From a virus (Duplodnaviria; Heunggongvirae; Uroviricota; Caudoviricetes), in the IMG/VR virus record IMGVR_UViG_2695420687_000017: a stretch of 3,410 nucleotides of DNA; one strand, 5' to 3'. Positions within the stretch are counted from its first letter, which is position 1. Every line of letters starts with the position of its first letter. Positions 1,668-3,410 of the stretch are shown here, piece by piece. Position numbers and translations under genes: made by a program. The notes under the pieces are model-generated. The model did not search any database. It was not told the DNA's origin and was given only the letters and a program-made list of their open reading frames with translations.

Positions 1668-1802
1668 TCATCCACGGCAGTGGCACCACACGTCAAACAT
1701 TCGTTTCACAACTTCACGGCAGTAGAAGCCGTCGACATCACGGGTCAGGTCGTAGCGATTGCCGAATGTCTTGCGAACCCAGAACTCAAAAGCCGTATGC
1801 AT
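1668..1802 (-). CDS. Small ORF not in the supplied track, 44 aa (MHTAFEFWVRKTFGNRYDLTRDVDGFYCREVVKRMFDVWCHCRG), hypothetical, three Cys near the C-terminus
   Basis: Found by hand translation. ATG at 1802-1800 is preceded by a perfect Shine-Dalgarno GGAGGTGA (1813-1806) with a 6-nt spacer; the SD overlaps the TGA stop of the upstream 80-aa ORF. Stop TGA at 1670-1668, 18 nt before the xis start. Fills the only gap in an otherwise tightly packed co-directional gene string. No homolog recognised. Confidence 0.35.
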   Translation of the reverse strand: MHTAFEFWVRKTFGNRYDLTRDVDGFYCREVVKRMFDVWCHCRG

Positions 1803-1805
1803 GTA

Positions 1806-1813
1806 TCACCTCC
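1806..1813 (-). promoter_or_regulatory. Shine-Dalgarno GGAGGTGA serving the 44-aa ORF
   Basis: Plus strand reads tcacctcc at 1806-1813; the minus strand is GGAGGTGA, 6 nt upstream of ATG at 1802. Same 8-mer as at 2141-2148. Confidence 0.4.

Positions 1814-2052: not shown

Positions 2053-3410
<1,358 letters not shown>

Follow-up and report, generated by a model that had tools for sequence, protein, structure and literature searches.

The 44-codon open reading frame (ORF) located between an 80-aa DUF4222 gene and the excisionase gene xis on the minus strand of the window (the whole 3,410-nt stretch of viral DNA that was analyzed; Table 1) is, judging from the way in which its sequence has been conserved, a lambdoid prophage gene that genuinely codes for a protein. 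It is not new, being already listed in RefSeq, GenBank and PHROG. Its product is probably a portable accessory small protein of the early or delayed-early class, which would act by binding a partner; this reading is given rather better than even chances.

The ORF had been proposed in an earlier note, made from the letters of the DNA, as a protein of 44 aa with cysteines at positions 28, 40 and 42 lying between the 80-aa gene and xis, and it is present there with the sequence MHTAFEFWVRKTFGNRYDLTRDVDGFYCREVVKRMFDVWCHCRG. The same note had pointed out a perfect 8-mer Shine-Dalgarno (SD) sequence shared with the hydrophobic ORF. The window has exactly two copies of the 8-mer, GGAGGTGA, each on the minus strand, where shuffled sequences lead one to expect 0.08 copies; one copy precedes the small gene and the other the 28-aa hydrophobic ORF. 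The distance of 6 nt that had been given between SD and ATG holds when it is counted from the GGAGG core, whereas the 8-mer itself ends 3 nt from the ATG, from which it is separated by the bases TAC. Nor is the gap at 1650-1805 exactly filled, as had been thought; 3 nt are left over upstream of the gene and 18 nt before the ATG of xis.

Table 1. Coordinates of the small gene and the neighbouring features in the window, with the basis on which each was assigned
Feature	Position	Strand	Details and basis
Small ORF / coding sequence	1668-1802	minus	44 aa, ATG start; PHROG 3871 family; ORF listing
SD of small gene	1806-1813	minus	GGAGGTGA; sequence reading and motif count
Spacer, small-gene stop to xis ATG (1649)	1650-1667	minus	18 nt; contains xis SD GAGG at 1655-1658
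Integrase	75-1361	minus	Gene in window
Excisionase (DUF1233, xisR type)	1395-1649	minus	Pfam PF06806, E 2e-29; PHROG 539; RefSeq annotation
80-aa DUF4222 gene	1806-2048	minus	Pfam PF13973, E 9e-16
28-aa hydrophobic ORF	2053-2139; SD GGAGGTGA at 2141-2148	minus	ORF listing, motif count, conservation
DUF551 gene, C-terminal part	joined to lacZ at 2440/2441	minus	Window gene reading

The SD ends in TGA (1806-1808), which at the same time terminates the upstream DUF4222 gene, and this overlap allows coupling of the small gene by termination and reinitiation. The 3-nt gap between stop and start is retained in nearly every DUF4222 context among the homologous loci. On the downstream side, the stop codon of the small gene overlaps the SD of the next gene in most relatives; in the 48-aa alleles, the last codons and the stop (..GTG TGA GGT..) form the SD of xis, GTGTGAGGT, which is followed by 4-6 nt and the ATG. 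It was also observed that the DUF4222 gene, the small gene and xis (1395-2048) lie in one common reading frame, running as TGA-TAC-ATG at the first boundary and TGA-spacer-ATG at the second, and that read-through of both TGA codons would yield fusion proteins. The common frame is probably a coincidence, since the spacing is different in the 48-aa alleles.

A 44-codon ORF means little on its own in a window that holds 53 ORFs of at least 25 aa. The pairing with an SD and, above all, the conservation across genomes go far beyond chance. Homologous loci were gathered from species-representative genomes, IMG/VR and annotated phages, a sample that is heavily biased to E. coli. The frame was found to be open from start to stop in all 94 loci that were fetched first (41 distinct ORF sequences of 44-50 codons), and frame-breaking indels, for which the earlier note had suggested that homologous prophages be searched, are absent from these regions. 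From the same 94 loci, 39 unique blocks of 132 nt, all from prophages of Enterobacterales, were taken for the estimation of dN/dS. These gave a pooled pS of 0.50, a pN of 0.087 and a dN/dS of 0.11, with no stop in the frame in any of the 39; variable columns number 23, 21 and 39 at the three codon positions, the third varying most. The remaining five frames either are interrupted by stops, in 13-39 of the 39 blocks, or have a dN/dS above 2. Among 50 distinct contexts, the start codon is ATG in 46 and GTG in three, and 47 have an SD-like motif at a distance of 4-16 nt before it, so that the combination of SD and start is not confined to this genome. The proposal that this is a real small gene of a leftward operon is thus well borne out by the frame, the substitution pattern and the start sites.

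Other readings of the same stretch have been considered. It is hardly credible that the ORF is a chance one in a spacer, or that it serves as a 'ribosome delivery' ORF with an irrelevant peptide sequence. Such a reading would draw on the abundance of short ORFs in the window and on the partial constraint at the nucleotide level in 48-aa alleles, the final codons of which double as the xis SD, but it is refuted by the substitution pattern: the low dN/dS goes together with near-saturated synonymous change and the lack of stops, the amino-acid core is kept across genera, and the same protein is conserved in the nin region, which is a different operon with different neighbours. A search of the whole window against Rfam at E ≤ 1 returned no RNA family. 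A leader peptide or pure coupling ORF was ruled out on account of the purifying selection that acts on the amino-acid sequence and of its conservation in another operon. The antisense ORFs on the plus strand (1640-1912 and 1680-1829) were rejected as well, since each of the three antisense frames is interrupted by stops in 13-39 of the 39 blocks.

The protein matches the profile of PHROG 3871 (phrog_3871) with an E-value of 1.1e-32, its residues 1-44 aligning with profile positions 1-44 of 48. It falls in the 44-50 aa length class of this family and has the core residues F5, E6, Y17, D22, G25 and Y27; alignments of diverse members showed no variation at F5 and Y27, the only such residues besides the start Met, and conservation of at least 90% at the other four. 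As in the rest of the family, its home is a temperate phage or prophage, in a same-strand run of early-region genes (left arm or nin). Carriers include the prophage adjoining mlrA in E. coli O145:H28, Stx1 phages, BP-4795, Fels-1 and, in the nin region, prophages of Hafnia and Xenorhabdus. At 90% identity, the family falls into 179 clusters, all of them from genera of Enterobacterales (among these Escherichia, Salmonella, Klebsiella, Citrobacter, Enterobacter, Pantoea, Serratia, Hafnia and Xenorhabdus) and all labelled 'hypothetical'; at 50% identity, only 37 representatives are found among 1.84 billion proteins. Two records attributed to Flavobacteriia, one titled Chryseobacterium sp. 18061 (L012) and the other Elizabethkingia phage EKP1 (H90), carry a version of this enterobacterial-type gene with 77-80% protein identity, and in the former the neighbours of the small gene are likewise enterobacterial prophage genes. 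This suggests that the two records are mislabelled or contaminated and do not reflect the true host range.

An identical protein is held in RefSeq as WP_000556583.1 ('hypothetical protein'); it is an annotated CDS in one of the loci (L001) and is present on at least 1000 contigs. Annotation is uneven, and among the 44 phage records in which the small gene is encoded there are eight, e.g., VT1-Sakai and phiP27, that give no feature for it. This probably explains why the gene had been described as absent from the track. Clear homologues with 73-75% identity, also called 'hypothetical protein', lie in the same place upstream of xis and int in BP-4795 (ORF3, YP_001449240.1) and Fels-1 (STM0895.1n), and the record of the latter itself cites BP-4795 ORF3. 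The allele in the window is the short form of 44 aa, most family members having 48 aa; otherwise, there is no substantive difference. Searches with the 44-aa protein gave no match in Pfam, NCBIfam or PADLOC (E ≤ 0.1), the last covering models of anti-phage defence, and no excisionase family was matched in Pfam, NCBIfam or PHROG. A literature search returned no paper that mentions WP_000556583 or STM0895.1n and nothing on this protein.

According to an AlphaFold2 model built from a 22-sequence alignment (mean pLDDT 87), the protein consists of a helix at residues 2-13, a short beta-hairpin-like loop and a second helix at residues 30-43. Aromatic residues make up nine of the 44, a composition that would be suited to the core of so small a domain, and the protein is predicted from the model to fold as a compact, aromatic-rich helix-hairpin-helix module. 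No helix-turn-helix (HTH) or enzyme family was matched, and sequence and fold searches of the PDB gave nothing relevant. The winged-helix or HTH DNA-binding fold that marks an excisionase or recombination directionality factor is not seen in the model. In a fold search of BFVD, the best match was a member of the family (TM 0.9); the next were uncharacterized phage proteins from Erwinia, Burkholderia, Ralstonia, Pseudomonas and Stenotrophomonas, with TMq values of 0.7-0.84 and non-significant E-values. The module also occurs as part of larger proteins. Phage accessory proteins of the P0079/P0080 type, which are 105-139 aa long and have a Lar-like zinc ribbon and a PQPPQE tail, contain 43 residues homologous to the small protein; in these the module is the N-terminal domain, whereas it stands alone in the window. 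Residues 5-47 of P0080 align with the small protein with an hhalign probability of 97% and 47% identity, the N-terminal module matches PHROG 3871 (E 2e-8), and the zinc ribbon that follows it has a Pfam match below the cutoff. Further fusions of the P0080 type were sought with a word-index search, which yielded no candidates, and with tblastn against phage records, which yielded no matches.

The cysteines had been suggested as a possible partial metal-binding motif, which would make the product a zinc mini-protein; this is now very improbable. The allele in the window does have Cys28, Cys40, His41 and Cys42, and close relatives retain Cys28 and Cys42 in at least 90% of cases. However, not one Cys or His is invariant across the family, which makes a conserved metal site unlikely, and the three or four invariant ligands of a zinc ribbon or knuckle are not found. 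Cys28 is replaced by Ala or Val in six of 17 diverse members, Cys42 by Ala, Leu, Arg or Phe in more distant members, and Cys40 by R, S, Y, F, Q or V, the first four of these already among close relatives; C40F is seen in nine loci of the window's own clade, and His41 varies widely. Zinc-binding Pfam families were not matched. The model, too, speaks against such a site. Cys28 is placed just before the second helix, while Cys40 and Cys42 stand in an i/i+2 relation near its far end, and Cys28 is about 18 Å away from these two, as estimated from helix geometry via the secondary-structure string and not from coordinates. By this estimate, the cysteines are too far apart for one intramolecular site, and the closeness in space of ligands in paired CxxC-type knuckles is not seen.

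The small gene stands in an uninterrupted same-strand run made up of DUF551, the 28-aa membrane ORF, DUF4222, the small gene, xis and int. A scan of 1300-2500 returned no promoter-like or terminator-like site, which fits a single operon and gives no sign of an independent transcription unit. The first 2440 nt of the window are 100% identical to the prophage adjoining mlrA in E. coli O145:H28 RM12761, and positions 1300-2300 are 98.7% identical to Stx1a-converting phages. DUF4222 is the family of RgdR (ECs1581), a regulator encoded by a prophage that activates the type III secretion system of the LEE in EHEC (PMC10877973, PMC3378721); the copy in the window has RGQ at the place of the RGD motif. 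The 28-aa hydrophobic ORF overlaps the stop codon of DUF551 (ATGA) and is conserved as M[SN]WP[DE]A...[RF]WG in at least eight diverged variants, including those of Pantoea loci and of the locus L095 described below. It is unannotated in RefSeq, where a gap is left at 5048-5134 of L001, and likewise in the phage records that were examined; it is probably a real small membrane protein. At the far end of the run, a lacZ'-'DUF551 ORF of 410 aa (2136-3368, minus strand) is formed by an in-frame join at 2440/2441, beyond which the lacZ part is only 89% identical to lacZ of E. coli. The junction is covered by no complete E. coli genome, and a search of IMG/VR for its 34-mer gave no exact match; either the join arose naturally, by rearrangement in an Escherichia-like host other than E. 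coli, or the assembly is chimeric.

On comparing the surroundings of the gene in different genomes, it was found to lie directly upstream of an excisionase-type gene in 163 of 185 locus entries, a collection that is rich in E. coli and contains some contigs fetched twice. Contexts adjoining an excisionase make up about half of the 30 combinations of upstream and downstream neighbours that were seen. The excisionases belong to four families: PHROG 539/DUF1233, PHROG 2917, PHROG 1553 and the AlpA-like PHROG 66/33798. The upstream neighbour is DUF4222 in most E. coli loci and one of at least five unrelated genes elsewhere (at least six in all). In P4-type loci, where int is convergent, the small gene remains beside xis and not int. 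In L095, which represents one lineage on two contigs, the small domain is fused in frame to a DUF1233 Xis. The fusion spans 3962-4336; the gene caller had placed the start at 4001, and the N-terminal helix becomes complete when the ORF is begun at the ATG at 3962. Immediately before the fusion there is a homologue, 27 aa long, of the hydrophobic ORF. In Escherichia phage PhiR12_1 (L097, 2654-2863), an unannotated 69-aa excisionase of PHROG 2917 (E 2.5e-41) was observed between the small gene and int.

The gene is also found away from xis. In prophages of Hafnia (66% identity) and Xenorhabdus (52%), it is located in the nin region, between ninB and rusA/ybcO/ninG, where it overlaps ninB by 4 nt and has no xis nearby. 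These homologues behave as a typical small nin cassette of the NinD/E/F/H class of lambdoid ORFs; the small protein differs from the nin families in that it is unmatched by the Pfam nin models and that the copies in E. coli and Salmonella belong to the left operon. Between the small gene and an AlpA-like or PrtN-like gene, Klebsiella and Serratia have a further gene. In the Stx2a phage Stx2_14040 (L096, 2851-3133), a deletion has taken the 5' part of the small gene together with the 3' part of DUF4222, so that the truncated DUF4222 is joined to the final ~40 nt of the small gene; xis and int are intact and 98% identical to those of the window. Co-occurrence with xis and int is, hence, not obligatory in either direction.

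These contexts bear on the possibility that the protein is an accessory factor of the excision module, one which stabilises, chaperones or tunes Xis or the Xis-Int intasome and for this reason sits before xis and is translationally coupled to it. The link is attractive: the gene adjoins excisionases of four families while its upstream neighbour changes, stays by xis where int is convergent, has a stop that overlaps the xis SD, and in one lineage has become part of Xis itself. It is not obligatory, however, given the nin copies, the intervening genes of Klebsiella and Serratia and the deletion in Stx2_14040. Moreover, the four excisionase families are not recognisably related, so that one shared contact surface is less likely, and the fusion in L095 is a single event. 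The ranking follows from this, with the accessory partner-binding protein first and the excisionase as partner its main rival, which is considered unlikely. Still more doubtful is the idea of a portable module that joins Xis proteins of several unrelated families and tunes the directionality or timing of excision, the nin copies being secondary relocations.

According to the preferred reading, that of an accessory protein acting by partner binding, the small gene would belong to the leftward early operon, by its position in the gene run that ends in xis and int, and its product would bind and modulate another protein, of host or phage, in early lytic development or during induction. The binding step is suggested by the size of the protein, its fold, the domain fusions and the context. 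The same module would also be used, at the N-terminus, in larger accessory proteins of phages. The small protein would not be an essential part of the excision machinery; an accessory or dispensable role is proposed because Stx2_14040 has xis and int without an intact small gene and because the nin-region copies are far from xis. A positional analogue is known from lambda. Ea8.5, the product of the gene directly upstream of xis in lambda, is a small accessory protein of the leftward early operon, and the fold of its homologues is a homeodomain/zinc-finger hybrid in which the ligands are conserved. No relationship of sequence or fold between Ea8.5 and the small protein was detected in the sequence and fold searches of the PDB, and the family of the small protein has no conserved ligands.

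Compared with the 48-aa form, the allele of the window itself shows a net deletion of 1 nt at codons 44/45 (GGG CTG A.. to GGA TGA; L001 vs L081). Through the early TGA, the four C-terminal residues (the L-x-V-V tail) are lost, and the 18 nt before xis, which are coding in the commoner 48-aa alleles, become a spacer. The clade of the window was defined as the 42 loci within 10 nt of its allele (the 'MHTAFEFW' lineage). Among these, the small gene has eight distinct nonsynonymous changes and one synonymous, and in the same loci the corresponding ratios are 3:10 for xis (omega ~0.08) and 10:28 for int (omega ~0.10), with a Fisher p of 0.0006 for the comparison. The changes include G14D, T20P, V38E and C40F, which are radical and affect positions that are otherwise near-invariant. 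The 8:1 pattern fits neutrality (binomial p = 1.0) and rejects the omega of 0.11 of the family (p = 0.0004), whereas the sister 'MNKAFELW' clade, of similar depth, has a ratio of 6:15 with conservative replacements (omega ~0.10).

On these nine mutations, the window's own copy may be under relaxed constraint. It is conceivable, though on balance doubtful, that it is a decaying allele of an otherwise functional family, the 44-aa lineage drifting while its frame is still open; the neutral-like and partly radical changes, unlike those in xis, int and the sister clade, and the loss of the C-terminal residues would agree with this. Set against it are the small number of mutations, the intact frame in all 42 loci and the wide occurrence of the identical protein noted above, and the excess of replacements could instead be a sign of diversifying selection or of short-term polymorphism. 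The relaxation would not be due to truncation alone, since other 44-aa alleles (L062-L066) sit in the constrained sister clade.

The small gene is real and warrants consistent annotation, given its absence from eight of 44 phage records. It adds one more conserved, uncharacterized small protein to those already known from the accessory early genes of lambdoid prophages, the Stx-converting ones included, and there is nothing in this that would surprise a phage specialist. Only one lead would merit an experiment, namely, that the gene is repeatedly coupled to excisionases of unrelated families, which offers a cheap and testable approach to the control of prophage excision in EHEC and Salmonella.
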